A stretch of DNA of 24,000 nt from Alteromonadaceae bacterium. GTDB taxonomy: Bacteria; Pseudomonadota; Gammaproteobacteria; Enterobacterales; Alteromonadaceae. The stretch spans positions 2,714 to 26,713 of the forward strand of contig CAXRGH010000135.1 in NCBI GenBank assembly GCA_964230195.1, in the 5' to 3' direction. The number at the start of each line of letters is the position of its first letter. Positions within the stretch are counted from its first letter, which is position 1. Below are positions 16,355-22,868 of this stretch, piece by piece. The notes under the pieces are model-generated. The model saw nothing but the letters and a program-made list of their open reading frames with translations. It did no database searches and was not told the origin of the DNA. The position numbers were made by a program, and so were the translations under genes.

Positions 16355-17077
16355 ATGGATCATGAAGAGAAGTTACTCGAATTTTTATACGTTGCCCCAG
16401 TCGCCCTTATTCAATTTGATGGTAGCGGCAATGTCACCTTAGCTAACCCGAGAGTTGCTCAACTGTTCAACCGCTACGCACCGGGAGGCTACTTTGCTAA
16501 TTTCCTAACTTTCCTTGATGACGTGTTGCCCGAGTTGAAAAAGGATATTGTGAATTTTCCTCATAAAGGTGGTCAGATCATGGAGAATAAGCGAGTCTGC
16601 TTGCAAGCACCTTCACAACTCGCGCAAGAAGAATTGTGGATGGACGTTACCGTCATGAAACAAGATGATGAGCGCTATATTGCATCCCTCAACAACGTGA
16701 CCGACCAAGTAGTTGCAGAAAACGAGCGTTATGTGTCAGAGCAATATCTCACCCAGCTGTTAGAAAAAGTAAACAAACATGTTGCTTTCACCCTCGACCC
16801 CAACGGCATTATCAACAGCTGGAACATTACAGGTGAAACCTATATTACCGATAGTCCTTATGCACTCGGGAAAGTGCTGTCACAGCTATTCCCCATCAGT
16901 AACCAAGATAACTCATTGATACTTGCACAAGCGAAAGAAATGGGGCAACACAAAACCACAATCCAATTTGCAGACAAAAGTGGGGAGTCACACGCTTCTT
17001 GCTTATATGTCTCAGGAATACATGACCAAAGAGATAAGTTTCAAGGCTTTTCGGTCGTGTTAACGCTGGGCGAATAG
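16355..17077 (+). CDS. Output-less tandem PAS-domain protein; first gene of the PYP cluster
   Basis: Two PAS-like cores: VAPVALIQFDGSGNVTLANPRVAQLF... and HVAFTLDPNGIINSWNITGETYIT...GKVLSQLFP. No effector domain. The ATG at 16355 is preceded by AGGAGG at 9 nt; the track start at 16289 is GTG. Confidence 0.65.
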   Translation: MDHEEKLLEFLYVAPVALIQFDGSGNVTLANPRVAQLFNRYAPGGYFANFLTFLDDVLPELKKDIVNFPHKGGQIMENKRVCLQAPSQLAQEELWMDVTVMKQDDERYIASLNNVTDQVVAENERYVSEQYLTQLLEKVNKHVAFTLDPNGIINSWNITGETYITDSPYALGKVLSQLFPISNQDNSLILAQAKEMGQHKTTIQFADKSGESHASCLYVSGIHDQRDKFQGFSVVLTLGE

Positions 17078-17106
17078 CCCATTAAAATTCAATCAGGAGA
17101 GATAAA

Positions 17107-17454
17107 ATGAATTTTGACTCAACCAATATCCGCGAATTGCACTCGGGAGCTTCTCAGTTTAATGCGGCAAACTTTGGCATTGTTAAGATGGATCACGATG
17201 GCAATGTCACTGATTACAATAGTAGCCAAGAACGGTTTACCGGTATGTCTAAAGCATCGGTGATGGGAAAGCACTTCTTTTCTCTAGTTGCACCTTGTAC
17301 CAACAACTTCATGGTTGCTCAGAAATATGACAACCAGTCGTCATTAGATGAGAAGGTGCCGTATACCTTCACATTAAAGATGACGCCAACCCCCGTTACA
17401 TTGCGCTTACTCAAAGACAGCAGCGCCCAATATTTGCTGTGTGATTGGTCGTAA
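17107..17454 (+). CDS. pyp: Photoactive yellow protein (PYP) homologue, stand-alone 115 aa
   Basis: Collinear with H. halophila PYP from memory. [24 protein letters not shown] aligns with [38 protein letters not shown] aligns with [26 protein letters not shown] aligns with YTFDYQMTPTKV. Chromophore Cys (C64=C69), Tyr42 and Thr50 equivalents are present. Position 46 is Gln and position 52 is Met. GGAGAG RBS. Confidence 0.8.
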   Translation: [115 protein letters not shown]

Positions 17455-17464
17455 TATCGCAATC

Positions 17465-17490
17465 ATAAGAAGGGGCTATCCCCTTCTTAT
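17465..17490 (+). other. Perfect 11-bp stem-loop between pyp and the transducer gene (RNA stabiliser / partial terminator candidate)
   Basis: ataagaagggg-ctat-ccccttcttat, starting 10 nt after the pyp stop. No U tract follows. The next RBS (caggagaga) comes immediately after. Confidence 0.5.
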
Positions 17491-17505: not shown

Positions 17506-18672
17506 ATGTGGAAAAGGATTTTTACAGGTACAAGCGCCGTATTGGCGTTAGCGTTGTCAGTGGCAGGTTTGTTTTTCCAAGTAAAACAAGATGCCGCTGG
17601 GTTGAGTTGGATCTACGGCTTGAGCAGTTTGCTTCTGATAACGTCAATCGCTGCCGTCTGGTTGTTTTACGGCAAGCCGCTATTCAACATCATTCAGCAA
17701 ATCCCCAGCCATGGTCTAGATGATACCTCTGATGATGTCTCTCACCTCAATCAAGGACTCAATCGACTTCAGAGCCAAATGCTGTCGGCCCAGCAACTTT
17801 GTCATCAAAAGCAGCAACAGCTCGATGCATTAACTCAAGCAATCGCTGTGCTAAAGCTCGAATTAGATGACCCCACGGCTTCGCAAACTAACACCAATAA
17901 ACAGGATCAACAGTCTATTCAAGACGCTTTTACGCAATCCGAAAATGCCGCGGATTATGCCACTGAGACGTTTGAAACCTTATATCACTCAGTCAACACA
18001 CTTGGCACTAGCTATCAAGACGTTCGAAAAAGTGCCGAAAAGCTGAACAATAATGCCAATGAGAGTGCAGAGATGGTCAATACCTCTCGCGCCTCGTTAG
18101 AACAATTATCCATGCAAGTATCAGAGATTGCAGCCGTCACCAACAGTATTGCTGATATTGCGAGTATGACACAGCTACTGGCACTAAATGCTTCCATTGA
18201 AGCGGCTCGTGCAGGTGAGTCGGGGAGAGGTTTTGCGGTCGTTGCTGATGAAGTGAAAAAACTCGCTGAACAAACCGATGAAGCCACTAAGCGTATCACC
18301 TCAATATCGCAAAGTATCTCAACCGCAAGTCAAGCGTCATCTGATGCAATGACCACCATTGCTGACCGCATGATCAGTGTGAGGGAAACTCTCACTGAGG
18401 TGGTATCCCACATTGAAACCCAATGGTCCAGCGTCCAAGGCGTTTTAGGACAAATGGGGCAAGCAGCTGGCACTGTCAGCGGCCTTAAAGGGATTCTTAA
18501 TACATCTAAAGAGACGGCGTTAATGCCATTCCTTGATACTACCGCGAGTCAAGACACACGCCATTATTTTCACTCCATTGATTCCGTATTAGCAGAGTTT
18601 AGTATCCCTCTAGAAGTCAAAGATACAGAAGCAAACCCATCAGAGTATGACCACTCAGAGCTTTCCGTTTGA
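17506..18672 (+). CDS. MCP-type transducer with a TM hairpin and no periplasmic sensor domain
   Basis: Two N-terminal TM helices ([17 protein letters not shown] and [23 protein letters not shown]) are separated by only about 6 residues. The cytoplasmic coiled coil carries the MCP tip [34 protein letters not shown]. 388 aa. Confidence 0.85.
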
Positions 18673-18695: not shown

Positions 18696-19502
18696 ATGTT
18701 AGATGCACCTATTCCATTTTCTTTGCCGCCCCAAGAGTCAATTAAGGCGCAATCTCCTCAACTTGTTTTAGATGGCAAAAGCTTATCCATAGAACAAGTG
18801 ACTCAATTCATCAAAAAACAACATCACGTGTCCCTGTGCAAGCGAGCGGCTTCACCTGATGCATTGCAAGTGAGTTGTGATGTGATGGCGCAACAACTGA
18901 ATGACGGCAAGCAAATCTACGGGGTCAACACCTTGTTTGGAGGGCTTGCTAACTTAGGGGTCGATGATCCTATTGCGCTGCAGCAAGAACTCATCACATC
19001 TCACCATTCGGGCGCGGGAAATGACCTCGCCATTGACGATGTTAGAGTAGCCATGTTATTGCGGGTGAATTCCATTTGTCCACTGTTAGAGCAAAAAGCA
19101 TCACCATTGAGTGTCCACTTCCCCGTGCACGCTGAACAATTTAATCAAAATCTGAACTCTCAAGGTTTCGGTTCAGCGCAGTTAACGCAATCCGCTGGGC
19201 ATTTGTTAAAAACACATTTGGCAGCCAGTTTGATAATCTATCTACAAGCCGCTTATATTCGGGCAGATCAAAAACACTTATCCATTGACTCCGCGTTTAG
19301 CCCTTCCACTCGTCGACTAATTCGGGTATTTTGTGAACTTAACGGGTTGTCACTCACCGACAATTGGGCAGTACTGTCAGGTGTTCGCAACGAGCTGAAA
19401 CAAGCGTTTGTGGCTAATGTTGAACACGGCATTGACACATTCGCATTTGAATTCACGCAGGATGCGGTATCTTCTGCTCAAACGGATGAAAATGATTTAT
19501 GA
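18696..19502 (+). CDS. Aromatic amino-acid ammonia-lyase (HAL/TAL/PAL family) homologue, internally truncated and lacking the MIO-forming Ala-Ser-Gly core; possibly a pseudogene
   Basis: IYGVNTLFGGLANLGV...LQQELITSHHSGAGNDLAIDDVRVAMLLRVNS matches the lyase N-terminal signature (YG[IV]NTGFG...LQ.NL..SHA.G.G..L....VR..M..R.NS). The protein is only about 268 aa against about 500-520, and no GxxGASGDL motif is present. The tail (LAASLIIYLQAAYIR...LTDNWAVLSGVRNELKQAF) weakly resembles the family C-terminus. The ATG at 18696 is preferred over the TTG at 18669. The stop overlaps the kinase start (ATGA). Confidence 0.6.
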   Translation: MLDAPIPFSLPPQESIKAQSPQLVLDGKSLSIEQVTQFIKKQHHVSLCKRAASPDALQVSCDVMAQQLNDGKQIYGVNTLFGGLANLGVDDPIALQQELITSHHSGAGNDLAIDDVRVAMLLRVNSICPLLEQKASPLSVHFPVHAEQFNQNLNSQGFGSAQLTQSAGHLLKTHLAASLIIYLQAAYIRADQKHLSIDSAFSPSTRRLIRVFCELNGLSLTDNWAVLSGVRNELKQAFVANVEHGIDTFAFEFTQDAVSSAQTDENDL

Positions 19503-21757
19503 CGACACTTGCCTCGCTATTGACTCAACAAGGTACACCCATTGAGTTGTCATACGACACAGATGGACTCAAGAACGCTGAAAATAACCAATCCATTCGC
19601 TTCATGGATGATGTCATTAGTCGTCGCATTCGCTATACCCGAAATTGGTGTCAAAAACATCAAAAAACTCATTCCTTTGACCATGCCTTTTTTCCCGAGG
19701 AGACAGGGCACAAGACGTTGTTGTATCGGCGAGTAACACTGGATCCTGATGGCCTCAAGATCAGTCCATTTCTAGCTCAAGAAGGTTATGTATTTAGCGA
19801 CGCATTTGAATCTCAAATTATTAATGCCTGTAACGACGCGGTATTACTCTGTGAGGCTGAGCCGATTGCCAGCCCAGGCCCTCGCATTATTTACTGTAAT
19901 AAAGCATACGAAACAATGACCGGTTACTCAGCAGCGGAAATGCTGGGAAATACACCACGTATTTTGCAAGGTGAGCAGTCATCGAAATTAGCCATTAAAA
20001 ACATCGCTATTGCACTACGAAAATGGCAGCCCATCAAACAACATATCGTTAATTATCGTAAAAATGGCGATGCTTTTTGGGTTGAATTAAATATTTCGCC
20101 GGTTACTGACGAAACAGGATGGTACTCCCATTGGATTTCCATTCAGCGGGATCTATCAATGGAAATAACCCACCAGCAGCATCAGTATCACATGCAAAGA
20201 ATGATGGAACGCAGTGGAGTGGGTACGTGGATTTATGATGGCCAAAAAGAACAGTTTAATTTTGACTGTAATGGTCTCGCATTACTCAATCTCGATACCG
20301 CTCAACACTGCGTTGCCTTGAGCGCTGTCACAGAACAACTCACTAAGCATCACTCATGTGATTTGAAAGCAAAGTTAGACGAAGCCTTAAACAGTGTATC
20401 CGGTTTAGAAATCGTGCTAGCCATGGGTGATGATCCAACAAAATATTTTCAGTTCAAAGGTGAGCGTTATTTTGATGTCACCCAACAGCACGCGACGTTA
20501 TCGGGTATCATGTTGGATATTACCAAAGAAAAACAGACGCAACTTGCTTTACAAGAACAGCGCGAGGCGATGATTGAAAACGGTAAACTTGCCGCCCTTG
20601 GTCGACTTGCTGCTGGTGTCGCCCATGAAATTAACAACCCACTGTCAGTCATCAATGTCATGTTAGATATTCTGGATATCAAATTACCTGCGGGCGATAT
20701 CAACTATCTGCAAGAGCAGCAGTTCTCGACAAAGCTTCGTGATGCGTCTGAGCGAATCGAACAGATAGTGTCGAGTTTATCCGACATTTCAAAAGCAAAT
20801 CGTAAGCGGGATACGGCGGTATCAGTCAATGTCACACGAGTAACCACAGAAACACTAGCACTGTTTCATCAGCTTTATCAGGCAGATGGGATTCAGATCA
20901 TTGATATTATTCCCAACCAACCTGCTTATGTTATGGCGCCACCCGGCACAATCCAACAGGTCATTGTTAATCTCTTAAATAATGCAAGAGACGCAGTTTC
21001 AGGAAACACCAGTAAGCGCATCAGTGTCACCGTTGAGATACTATCAACACACGTCGTGTTGCATGTAAAAGACAATGGAGAAGGGGTACCAGAGGCGATC
21101 CAGAAAACGTTATACGAACCTTTCGTCACAACGAAACCACCTGGCAAAGGCACTGGGTTAGGGTTATCAATTGTGCATGGGTTGATATCATCCTTGGGCG
21201 GAAAAATCACCTGCCATTCCGCTGATGTCGGCGCTTATTTTAGTGTTTCACTGCCTTTATGCGAGAGCATCGCAAGTGCATGTGCAGGTCCACAAGGTAT
21301 GACAACGATAGGGAACAATCAAAATTCAACTGCATTGCTTACCGCTTCTGGGAGCACAGTGTCATGCCTAGTGGTTGACGACAATCAACAACTTGCTCAG
21401 TCACTATCATCGTTACTGACGTTGTTAGGTTGTGATACCTGCATAGCTGAGAGTGGTGAGTCTGCGATTCATTTACTTAAAAAGCAGTCGTTTGATCTCA
21501 TTTTGACGGATATCAAAATGCCATCAATGGACGGTTGGGCCCTACTGGATATTATCCATAGAGAAAACCTTGCACCTGACAGCTTGTGCTATGTCATTTC
21601 AAGTCTCGGTAATAATGGGTTAAAAGCGCCATCTGTAGACTCAACTCGAGTTAACGGTATTTTGCCTAAACCGGTAAGTCGTACCGAGCTCATCGGTATT
21701 ATTGACGCGGTGAAAGAAAATCGACAACAGCAACAAACACTGCAAACAATATCCTAA
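19499..21757 (+). CDS. Hybrid sensor histidine kinase: unknown N-terminal region, LOV-like PAS (Cys replaced by Pro), second PAS, HisKA, HATPase_c, receiver
   Basis: LOV-like segment: PRIIYCNKAYETMTGYSAAEMLGNTPRILQGE...IVNYRKNGDAFWVELNISPVTDETG..ISIQRD. H-box AAGVAHEINNPL, N-box LLNNARDA, G1 DNGEGV, G2 GKGTGLGLSIV. Receiver: VVDDNQ...DLILTDIKMPSMDG...PKP. Confidence 0.88.
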   Translation: MTTLASLLTQQGTPIELSYDTDGLKNAENNQSIRFMDDVISRRIRYTRNWCQKHQKTHSFDHAFFPEETGHKTLLYRRVTLDPDGLKISPFLAQEGYVFSDAFESQIINACNDAVLLCEAEPIASPGPRIIYCNKAYETMTGYSAAEMLGNTPRILQGEQSSKLAIKNIAIALRKWQPIKQHIVNYRKNGDAFWVELNISPVTDETGWYSHWISIQRDLSMEITHQQHQYHMQRMMERSGVGTWIYDGQKEQFNFDCNGLALLNLDTAQHCVALSAVTEQLTKHHSCDLKAKLDEALNSVSGLEIVLAMGDDPTKYFQFKGERYFDVTQQHATLSGIMLDITKEKQTQLALQEQREAMIENGKLAALGRLAAGVAHEINNPLSVINVMLDILDIKLPAGDINYLQEQQFSTKLRDASERIEQIVSSLSDISKANRKRDTAVSVNVTRVTTETLALFHQLYQADGIQIIDIIPNQPAYVMAPPGTIQQVIVNLLNNARDAVSGNTSKRISVTVEILSTHVVLHVKDNGEGVPEAIQKTLYEPFVTTKPPGKGTGLGLSIVHGLISSLGGKITCHSADVGAYFSVSLPLCESIASACAGPQGMTTIGNNQNSTALLTASGSTVSCLVVDDNQQLAQSLSSLLTLLGCDTCIAESGESAIHLLKKQSFDLILTDIKMPSMDGWALLDIIHRENLAPDSLCYVISSLGNNGLKAPSVDSTRVNGILPKPVSRTELIGIIDAVKENRQQQQTLQTIS

Positions 21758-21832: not shown

Positions 21833-22549
21833 ATGAAAATACTGTTAGCAGAAGACGACCCTCAACTTGGCCCCATCATTGCCGACTACCTCAATCTCCA
21901 CGATTTTGAGGTCACTCATGTTGACTGCGGCAAAGACGCCATGAACGCGTTGGCGGAAACCTCCTTTGATGCCATTGTGCTTGATCTCACACTACCGGAT
22001 GAAGATGGTCTAGTGATTTTGCGTAAGATTAGACAGTGGCTTGAGACTCCCGTGCTGATTTGCTCCGCAAGAGGGACCGATAATGATCGAATTACCGGCC
22101 TAGAATTCGGTGCTCGCGACTACTTAACCAAACCCTTCGCGTCAAAAGAATTGGTGTTGCGACTGCGCAATCTTGTCAACGGCGTGAGCCAATCTCACAA
22201 TAAGCCTGCCCAAGATATTGAGTTTGGTCCCTTCCGCCTCGATCAACAGAAAAAACAACTGATTAATACTCAAATAGACAGTAGTATTCCCTTGACGCCA
22301 AAAGAATACGGGTTGCTTCTCATTATGGGACGTCGTCCCGGTCATGTGTTTTCCCGTAGTGATCTTATTGATGGCCTTCCACAACTTGAAGGTCCAGAAA
22401 CCTTACGTGCAATTGACATACTGATCAGCCGACTTCGACGGAAAATTGAAACGGATGCAAGGGCGCCTCAATACATCAAAACCGTCACTGGATTTGGCTA
22501 TAAACTCAGCACTCACAACTGCCTATCTACTGCAATAGACGACGCCTAG
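21833..22549 (+). CDS. OmpR/PhoB-family response regulator (receiver + winged-helix DNA-binding domain)
   Basis: MKILLAEDDPQL, DAIVLDLTLPDEDG, and KPF in the receiver. C-terminal LTPKEYGLLLIM...SRLRRKIE...IKTVTGFGYKL. The ATG at 21833 has AAGGA upstream; the track start at 21815 is less likely. Confidence 0.9.
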   Translation: MKILLAEDDPQLGPIIADYLNLHDFEVTHVDCGKDAMNALAETSFDAIVLDLTLPDEDGLVILRKIRQWLETPVLICSARGTDNDRITGLEFGARDYLTKPFASKELVLRLRNLVNGVSQSHNKPAQDIEFGPFRLDQQKKQLINTQIDSSIPLTPKEYGLLLIMGRRPGHVFSRSDLIDGLPQLEGPETLRAIDILISRLRRKIETDARAPQYIKTVTGFGYKLSTHNCLSTAIDDA

Positions 22550-22553
22550 CGGC

Positions 22554-22868
22554 TTACCAATCGCCCACTTTTCCCATACTGTTAGCGGGTATCTTGTCAC
22601 CAAGCACAACATGACTGAAAGAGACGTGAGGGCAATCCTGTTTCAGTTGTGACTGAAAAGCTTCCATATCAAACTGGGTATGCAATGTAGGGACGACGAA
22701 CAAATGTAGCTCAGAGAGTCCAGACTGCTCAAAGACTTTTACTGCACAATCAGACACGGTGGACAAACCCAACACTTGGCCTTTAACCTCAGACAGTGAT
22801 ACGTTCTTTCCATTAATCTGAATCTTTTTATCATTTTGCGCTAAACATTTTATGTTATTGAAGTGTAG
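22554..22868 (-). pseudogene. 3' remnant of an adenylate-forming enzyme gene (acyl/4-coumarate-CoA ligase-like C-terminal domain only)
   Basis: Open frame from the stop at 22869: ...LAQNDKKIQINGKNVSLSEVKGQVLGLSTVSDCAVKVFEQSG..LHLFVVPT...FQSQLKQDCPHVSFSHVVLGDKIPANSMGKVGDW. This matches motifs A8-A10 (GR.DD.IKI.G..V.L.E[IV]E..L......D.AV......G....FVV....IP....GK). The approximately 400-aa N-terminal adenylation domain is absent. A possible further fragment (FHGDELMLKR, out of frame) lies near 22915-22975. Confidence 0.6.

Follow-up and report, generated by a model that had tools for sequence, protein, structure and literature searches.

Glutamine at the proton-donor site of a gammaproteobacterial clade of photoactive yellow proteins encoded beside a sensor-less chemoreceptor

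In the textbook photoactive yellow protein (PYP), Glu46 is the proton donor, and its ionisation drives the signalling change. Whether this proton step is dispensable in nature is the question raised by a pyp gene from an uncultured Alteromonadaceae bacterium, represented by the metagenome-assembled genome (MAG) GCA_964230195.1. The gene lies in a stretch of 24,000 nucleotides (contig CAXRGH010000135.1, positions 2,714 to 26,713 of the forward strand), the whole of which we refer to as the window. A preliminary description, made from the sequence alone, proposed that the gene encodes a natural PYP with Gln in place of Glu46 and Met in place of Arg52 of the H. halophila protein. We find that a whole clade of PYPs keeps Gln at this position and is, by its gene neighbourhood, linked to a chemoreceptor, and it is this combination that poses the question. 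In our judgement the window gene is very probably a genuine single-domain PYP of the poorly studied clade C, in which Gln at the Glu46 site is native and selected, and a member of a gammaproteobacterial clade with a conserved gene cluster.

The residue assignment is the foundation of this reading. In a phmmer search against all PDB chains, residues 16-70 of the window protein pair with residues 21-75 of H. halophila PYP with zero gaps, which sets Y37=Y42, Q41=E46, T45=T50, M47=R52 and C64=C69, exactly the equivalences first proposed. The alignment with PYPs has no gap anywhere between Phe23 and Val70. All top PDB entries are PYPs, and the best score belongs to the laboratory E46Q mutant 1ot6 (E 4e-14). 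A structure prediction, suggested in the preliminary description as a check, agrees. The AlphaFold2 (AF2) model, built on 67 homologues (predicted local distance difference score, pLDDT, 88.6; predicted template-modelling score, pTM, 0.82), superposes in Foldseek on the PYP crystal structures 1f9i, 2phy and 1ot6 with a template-modelling (TM) score of 0.91 and a root-mean-square deviation of 1.8 Å, N-terminal cap included (122 columns for 2phy). In the modelled helix 39-45, Gln41 and Thr45 stand one turn apart (i, i+4), which is the spacing of Glu46 and Thr50 in PYP.

The features by which the PYP family is recognised are present: the PAS fold with its N-terminal helical cap, Cys69 (Cys64, within VAPC) and Tyr42 (Tyr37). 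Cys69 is the criterion that defines family membership (PAS_PYP), and the published definition tolerates E46Q (PMC9664959). The Glu46 proton donor, found in about 97% of PYP members, is missing, with Gln41 in its place throughout the clade. The residues that pack p-coumarate in the H. halophila protein are kept in the clade: Tyr42, Thr50, Phe62, Val66, Ala67, Pro68, Cys69, Tyr94, Phe96 and Met100. Among profile models, the best NCBIfam match is TIGR02373 (photo_yellow, equivalog) at 62.5 bits, under its curated cut-off of 143.05, and Pfam returns only a generic PAS domain (PF00989, 28 bits). TIGR02373 itself picks up only about 20% of PYP homologues (PMC9664959).

Gln46 is far from confined to this genome. 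A search of 5.8 billion proteins with the window PYP returned 68 relatives, and in their alignment (n=69) the Glu46 column holds Gln in 37 sequences, Glu in 29, Asn in two and Asp in one. The nearest sequence (P0001), 99% identical to the window PYP, shares its Gln and was found on 8 contigs, four of which we identified, each from a different sample (ERZ28548084, SRR5052267, SRR28144536 and SRR5052281). Outside its own population, the window PYP is at most 81% identical to any sequence. To place the protein we built a tree of 176 rows from which the position-46 column had been removed, its sampling widened with single-domain proteins that a scan of 1.84 billion cluster representatives had supplied. 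The window PYP sits in a clade of 35 rows, every one of them Gln (support 84 by the Shimodaira-Hasegawa-like approximate likelihood-ratio test, SH-aLRT). This clade is nested within one of 46 rows (SH-aLRT 91), 43 with Gln and three with Glu, and the rows outside are almost all Glu. The distribution of Gln on the tree needs 3 changes, against a mean of 39.5 when states are shuffled, and none of 500 shuffles gave so low a number.

Two alternatives would return the site to an ordinary glutamate, and both had been raised as caveats at the outset. The CAA codon might be a sequencing or assembly error for GAA, given that the two differ by one base and that the MAG is fragmented into 271 contigs. 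The comparison with sister strains suggested in the preliminary description refutes this in practice. The 99%-identical protein on 8 contigs keeps Gln, the sister contig L013 reads CAA at the Gln41 position, all rows of the 35-row clade and eight genomes from a motif scan (below) carry Gln, and both CAA and CAG encode it among the relatives. Because independent contigs and the whole clade agree, and both codons are in use, we reject the error and regard its probability as negligible. Alternatively, a register shift of one residue might put Glu42 on the phenolate and leave the site functionally like Glu46; a Glu does follow directly after the Gln in the window protein (codon 42 is GAA) and in P0007 and P0009. 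We reject this too, and give it barely more weight than the error, because residue 42 varies across the Gln clade (46% Ser, the rest Ala, Val, Glu or Gly) and residue 41 is always Gln, and because neither alignment nor model has a gap there, with helix geometry matching that of PYP.

The taxonomic reach of the variant was mapped by scanning one genome per prokaryotic species for the motif VAPCTNNF. This gave 80 loci, with Glu at position 46 in 66, Gln in 13 and Leu in one. Eight of the 13 Gln loci form a gammaproteobacterial group in which all share Y-Q-T-M-C at positions 42, 46, 50, 52 and 69; of the other five, four come from Bacteroidota and the fifth is a distant copy in a Vibrio. The eight are Glaciecola sp. 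UBA2563, a second Glaciecola MAG, Vibrio sp. Of14-4, Alteromonas sp. LOR, Alteromonas hispanica LMG 22958, Salinibius halmophilus, one Alteromonadaceae MAG and one Pseudomonadales MAG. Cultured carriers are therefore to hand in A. hispanica LMG 22958, Alteromonas sp. LOR, Vibrio sp. Of14-4 and S. halmophilus. With many metagenome sequences added, the Gln46 clade is compact, mostly marine and gammaproteobacterial, made up of Alteromonas, Glaciecola, one Vibrio and Salinibius. The cluster is patchily distributed and not a family trait, since 60 genomes of the same GTDB family yielded no close homologue of the window PYP (their best matches are ordinary PYPs at 35% identity). A genome of the same genus (G029) is without pyp. 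Two other sequences stood out in the searches. A Chitinophaga pinensis MAG (L076) has a PYP of clade-C type with Leu at the Glu46 position (Y-L-A-I-C), a substitution that it has in common with Thermochromatium tepidum Ppd. The other is a protein of 4799 aa (P0069) that aligned with the PYP query over 31 separate segments (E 1.8e-141); it may be a giant built of many PYP/PAS-like repeats.

Other positions distinguish the clade. Thr50 occurs in 94% of the Gln clade and in 5% of Glu46 rows, and Met52 in 86% and 4%, respectively; Lys54, His35, Lys32 and Lys78 also separate the two groups. The preliminary description had treated the Met at the Arg52 position (codon 47, ATG) as special in replacing an arginine, and this did not hold. 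Leu52 is found in 76% of Glu46 rows and is the family consensus at this position (PMC12826048), while Arg52 is peculiar to PYPs of the H. halophila type. Judged from the alignment, Met52 is a marker of the clade, and the missing Arg is in itself nothing out of the ordinary.

That the Gln46 variant is natural stands, although its novelty had been overstated. Substitutions of Glu46 have been reported in <3% of PYP homologues, E46Q being the commonest, and were discussed mainly for the Ppd proteins of clade A (Xing, Gumerov & Zhulin 2022; PMC9664959). A 2025 survey counted 97.1% Glu46 and 2.6% Gln46, described the natural Gln46 proteins as still awaiting study, and included a Salinibius sequence in its alignment (PMC12826048). 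The supplementary tables of the earlier work list A. hispanica WP_163110134.1 and Salinibius halmophilus WP_119395087.1 as clade C with Y/Q/C, and its sequence file contains the Gln-bearing Alteromonas sp. WP_032094334.1 (PMC9664959). Our literature search found no characterisation of any natural Gln46 PYP. The window PYP belongs to a variant already catalogued but unstudied, and this variant is a clade-wide trait rather than a singleton.

The genes around pyp are as consistent as the residue. Wherever a Gln46 gammaproteobacterial locus has enough flanking sequence, the order is uniform. It opens with an OmpR-type regulator and, convergent with it, an AMP-binding ligase (about 370-388 aa), continues with a tandem-PAS protein (about 240 aa), PYP and a sensor-less methyl-accepting chemotaxis protein (MCP; about 400 aa), and ends with an aromatic ammonia-lyase (518-559 aa), which a PAS hybrid kinase (about 745 aa) often follows. 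The response regulator adjoins the AMP-binding gene in L008, L010 and L017; in Salinibius the ligase lies downstream of the lyase, with no adjacent regulator seen. The published neighbourhood table gives the A. hispanica neighbours as a response regulator, an AMP-binding protein, PYP, an MCP signal protein and an aromatic amino acid lyase (PMC9664959). In every Gln46 gammaproteobacterial locus examined, the MCP gene is directly downstream of pyp. This pairing is specific to the gammaproteobacterial clade, because one Bacteroidota Gln46 locus and one Glu46 relative pair PYP instead with a HATPase_c protein and a kinase. The 2025 survey reports MCPs only as fusions, not in pyp operons (PMC12826048), and PYP beside sensor-less chemoreceptors has been described for clade B (PMC9664959). 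The features of the window are collected in Table 1.

Table 1. Features of the pyp cluster in the window (positions counted from the first nucleotide of the window)
Feature	Position	Strand	Evidence or remark
Tandem-PAS protein, ~240 aa, first gene of the conserved cluster	16355..17077	+	Weak PAS_9/PAS matches
Shine-Dalgarno-like AGGAG	17095..17099	+	7 nt before pyp start codon; sequence reading
pyp, 115-aa single-domain photoactive yellow protein, clade C type	17107..17454	+	Open reading frame list, profile matches, PDB matches, AF2/Foldseek
Tyr37 codon TAC, equivalent to H. halophila Tyr42	17215..17217	+	Gap-free alignment; 97% Tyr across the Gln clade
Gln41 codon CAA, equivalent to H. halophila Glu46	17227..17229	+	Gln in 100% of 35-row clade
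Thr45-Gly46-Met47, equivalent to Thr50-Gly51-Arg52 (Met47 codon 17245-17247)	17239..17247	+	Both Thr and Met mark the Gln46 clade
Codon 60 CTA (Leu), private substitution	17284..17286	+	blastn alignments to L014, L015, L016; P0001 comparison
Cys64 codon TGT, equivalent to Cys69, thioester attachment site	17296..17298	+	Invariant in all 70 aligned sequences of the first search
Perfect 11-bp-stem hairpin, no T-run, between pyp and MCP gene	17465..17490	+	Sequence; self-inverted blastn match
Sensor-less methyl-accepting chemotaxis protein	17506..18672	+	N-terminal hydrophobic hairpin and MCP signalling domain; PF00015 96.7 bits
Aromatic ammonia-lyase remnant	18696..19502	+	PF00221 matched only at profile positions 1-99 and 390-459
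Hybrid histidine kinase-receiver with LOV-like PAS	19499..21757	+	Pro for adduct-forming Cys (GNTPRILQG)
OmpR-type response regulator, syntenic partner of the ligase gene in relatives	21833..22549	+	Exact protein, read from ATG, in L021, L022; the form read from GTG had no exact match
p-Coumarate-CoA ligase (pCL) stump, C-terminal ~100 codons, ends ...PANSMGKVGDW	22554..22868	-	tblastn with L017 pCL: residues 288-385 only

Several of these neighbours merit comment. The hairpin between pyp and the MCP gene may set the ratio in which PYP and MCP are expressed. The tandem-PAS protein corresponds to an unannotated gene of 239-260 aa directly upstream of pyp in five relatives (L008, L010, L012, L017 and L018), and tblastn recovers it at 38-58% identity in L033-L039. 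Homologues at 22-33% identity also occur with many Glu46 clade-C PYPs (L041-L112), directly downstream of pyp there and upstream in the Gln46 clade; the protein may be a family-wide PYP partner that surveys have left unnamed. The LOV-like domain of the hybrid kinase spans approximately residues 126-236, with Pro153 at the position of the adduct-forming Cys; in an alignment that included YtvA, Pro also occupies this site in the L017 and L010 orthologues. The window's genome encodes two CheA-type kinases and 19 MCP domains.

The enzymes predicted to supply the chromophore also set the clade apart. In aromatic ammonia-lyases, His-Leu at the selectivity switch of Watts 2006 indicates a tyrosine ammonia-lyase (TAL), and a second motif has Gln in phenylalanine (PAL) or tyrosine lyases and Glu in histidine ammonia-lyases (HAL) (PMC3992019). 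The intact lyases of the Gln46 clusters that we compared (L008, L010, L012, L017, L033-L037 and L039) are nearest to the cyanobacterial PAL 3czo/2nyn, at 381 bits, as against 174 for the R. sphaeroides TAL 2o6y. Their switch reads [S/N/A/D]-His-[H/L/M/A], for example LQKQLIL-SH-LSGVG, and their second motif has the Gln of the PAL/TAL type (HAEQFNQN). Lyases beside Glu46 clade-C PYPs (L046, L102 and L104-L106) instead show the canonical TAL His-Leu (IYHLASGVG). The ligase of the relatives scores 168 bits to TIGR02372, the model for PYP-activation 4-coumarate-CoA ligase, whose cut-off is 335. In these comparisons Gln46 co-varies with four features, an association that is new here: Thr50, Met52, an MCP neighbour without a sensor domain, and a lyase that is PAL-like and departs from the canonical switch.

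In the window itself both of these genes are broken. The lyase remnant carries an 888-bp in-frame deletion at the 7-bp direct repeat TGAATTC (junction 19066-19072), which takes out about 296 residues, including GSIGASGDLIPL, the segment that holds the Ala-Ser-Gly forming the methylidene-imidazolone (MIO) group. Contigs L013 and L014, 96-99% identical to the window, keep the segment and have a full gene, and an exact look-up of the shortened product found no match. Of the p-coumarate-CoA ligase there is left a stump, convergent with the OmpR-type regulator, that has no adenylation core and has in-frame stop codons directly upstream. It is 21-30% identical to the C-termini of the relatives' ligases, which are 24-34% identical to each other, and two other assemblies (L021 and L022) carry it too, at 99.9% identity. 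Elsewhere in the MAG, which is 86% complete, we found no second pCL-like gene and a single further aromatic lyase, clearly a HutH (695 bits to the HAL model), with a Ser-His-Ala switch and the HAL-type Glu. The pair that would make up a chromophore-supply module, an intact MIO lyase and an intact 4-coumarate-CoA ligase, is absent from the MAG. With the lyase lacking its MIO motif and the ligase reduced to a stump, holo-PYP is doubtful in this organism: the intact window PYP is probably made without chromophore, as a recently orphaned photoreceptor. Since the chromophore genes are broken here, the window copy is a poor test subject and the cultured relatives are better ones.

For intact relatives, we infer the identity of the chromophore, its spectral and kinetic behaviour and the signalling through the MCP. 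The lyase and ligase genes in the relatives' clusters lend indirect support to covalently bound p-coumaric acid and a blue-light photocycle. The lyase and ligase would supply an activated hydroxycinnamate, most likely p-coumaroyl-CoA, that forms a thioester with Cys64, and its phenolate would be hydrogen-bonded by Tyr37 and the amide of Gln41. After isomerisation by blue light, residue 46 would be unable to protonate the chromophore and no buried carboxylate would arise. If laboratory E46Q PYP is a fair guide, these proteins should have a red-shifted spectrum, cycle faster and undergo a smaller structural change. The signal would then pass to the adjacent sensor-less MCP, possibly via the tandem-PAS protein, and on to CheA and CheY controlling swimming. 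Both the properties of E46Q and the model of PYP acting with a sensor-less chemoreceptor have been summarised previously (PMC9664959).

Two further possibilities were weighed. In the window's own lineage, the PYP may no longer be a photoreceptor at all, either because the gene is a relic decaying into a pseudogene or because the protein is kept as an apo-PAS partner of the MCP with a light-independent role; we put the chances at about even. Both chromophore genes are broken, the same-genus genome G029 has no pyp, and the protein carries a private substitution, Q60L, four residues before the attachment Cys, where three sisters aligned at base level (L014-L016) read CAA and P0001 has Gln. Pulling the other way, the reading frames of PYP, MCP, tandem-PAS protein and kinase are all intact, a strain of about 99% identity keeps a full-length lyase, which would make any loss very recent, and uptake of p-coumarate or an unlinked ligase is possible in an 86%-complete MAG. 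The window differs from its sister contigs at only 2-19 sites, too few for an estimate of the ratio of nonsynonymous to synonymous substitution rates (dN/dS). The second possibility concerns the clade as a whole: its chromophore might not be p-coumarate but some other hydroxycinnamate or acrylic acid made by its unusual lyase, with Gln46, Thr50 and Met52 as adaptations of the pocket to that ligand. The separate lineage and non-canonical switch of the clade's lyases would fit this, as would the presence of the TAL His-Leu beside Glu46 clade-C PYPs and the sub-threshold ligase score, and the divergence of TALs in pyp operons has been noted to make substrate assignment uncertain (PMC12826048). 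Nevertheless the p-coumarate pocket residues are retained, the second lyase motif has Gln and not the Glu of HAL, the His beside the switch could still bind the para-hydroxyl, and nothing direct points to another ligand, so that we consider this improbable.

Only a little less improbable, in our view, is the broader proposal that the Gln46/Thr50/Met52 pocket, the PAL-like lyase and the sensor-less MCP together constitute a distinct photosensory module, either using a non-p-coumarate chromophore or signalling without proton transfer from Glu46 to the chromophore. Were it true, such a module would be a natural test of the need for proton transfer in signalling. Several points weigh against our interpretation of a native Gln46 photoreceptor and what we build on it. 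The window PYP falls well below the TIGR02373 cut-off (62.5 vs 143). Support on the tree is moderate, since it comes from 99 columns and a quick search, and its deep branches are weak. The spectral and kinetic predictions derive from one mutant in a different, Arg52-bearing background. The lyases of the clade look PAL-like, with [S/N/A/D]-His in place of the TAL His-Leu, so that p-coumarate is only their presumed product. Regarding the lesions, the lyase deletion is seen in this assembly alone, and the 14% of the genome that the MAG lacks could hold an unlinked ligase or lyase.

Four known systems frame these results. Closest are the PYPs of A. hispanica, Alteromonas sp. and Salinibius, which fall in the same subclade, are 65-70% identical to the window protein and share Y-Q-T-M-C. 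Unlike them, the window PYP is a new sequence from an uncultured organism, in a cluster that has been rearranged, with the core of the lyase and most of the ligase gone. The Y-Q-T-M-C subclade is not singled out in the published text, which puts most E46Q cases in clade A (PMC9664959). What our analysis adds is the recognition of Gln46 as a clade-wide trait with co-variations, the naming of cultured carriers, and the lesions in the chromophore genes of the window's MAG. The laboratory E46Q mutant of H. halophila PYP (1ot6, 1ota, 1ote, 1ugu) has the same fold and the same Tyr, Gln, Thr and Cys around the chromophore. It differs in being only about 30% identical and in having Arg52, Asp97 and Tyr98 where the window protein has Met, Thr and Leu, and its red shift and faster cycle are measured, while the natural Gln46 proteins are known from sequence only.

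A characterised natural PYP without a carboxylate at position 46 is already available in T. tepidum Ppd (Tyr42/Leu46/Cys69), which absorbs at 465/358 nm, with a red-shifted maximum (PMC12826048). Ppd differs from the window protein in having Leu46, in belonging to clade A and in being the N-terminal domain of a phytochrome/GGDEF-EAL protein instead of standing alone. The gene arrangement finds its counterpart in the Leptospira clade B PYP and the CetA-CetB model, where a single-domain PYP likewise lies beside a membrane-anchored sensor-less MCP, suggesting phototaxis by protein-protein contact (PMC9664959). The Leptospira protein, however, belongs to another PYP clade and has Glu46, and the window cluster adds to this arrangement a tandem-PAS protein, a lyase and a LOV-like kinase.

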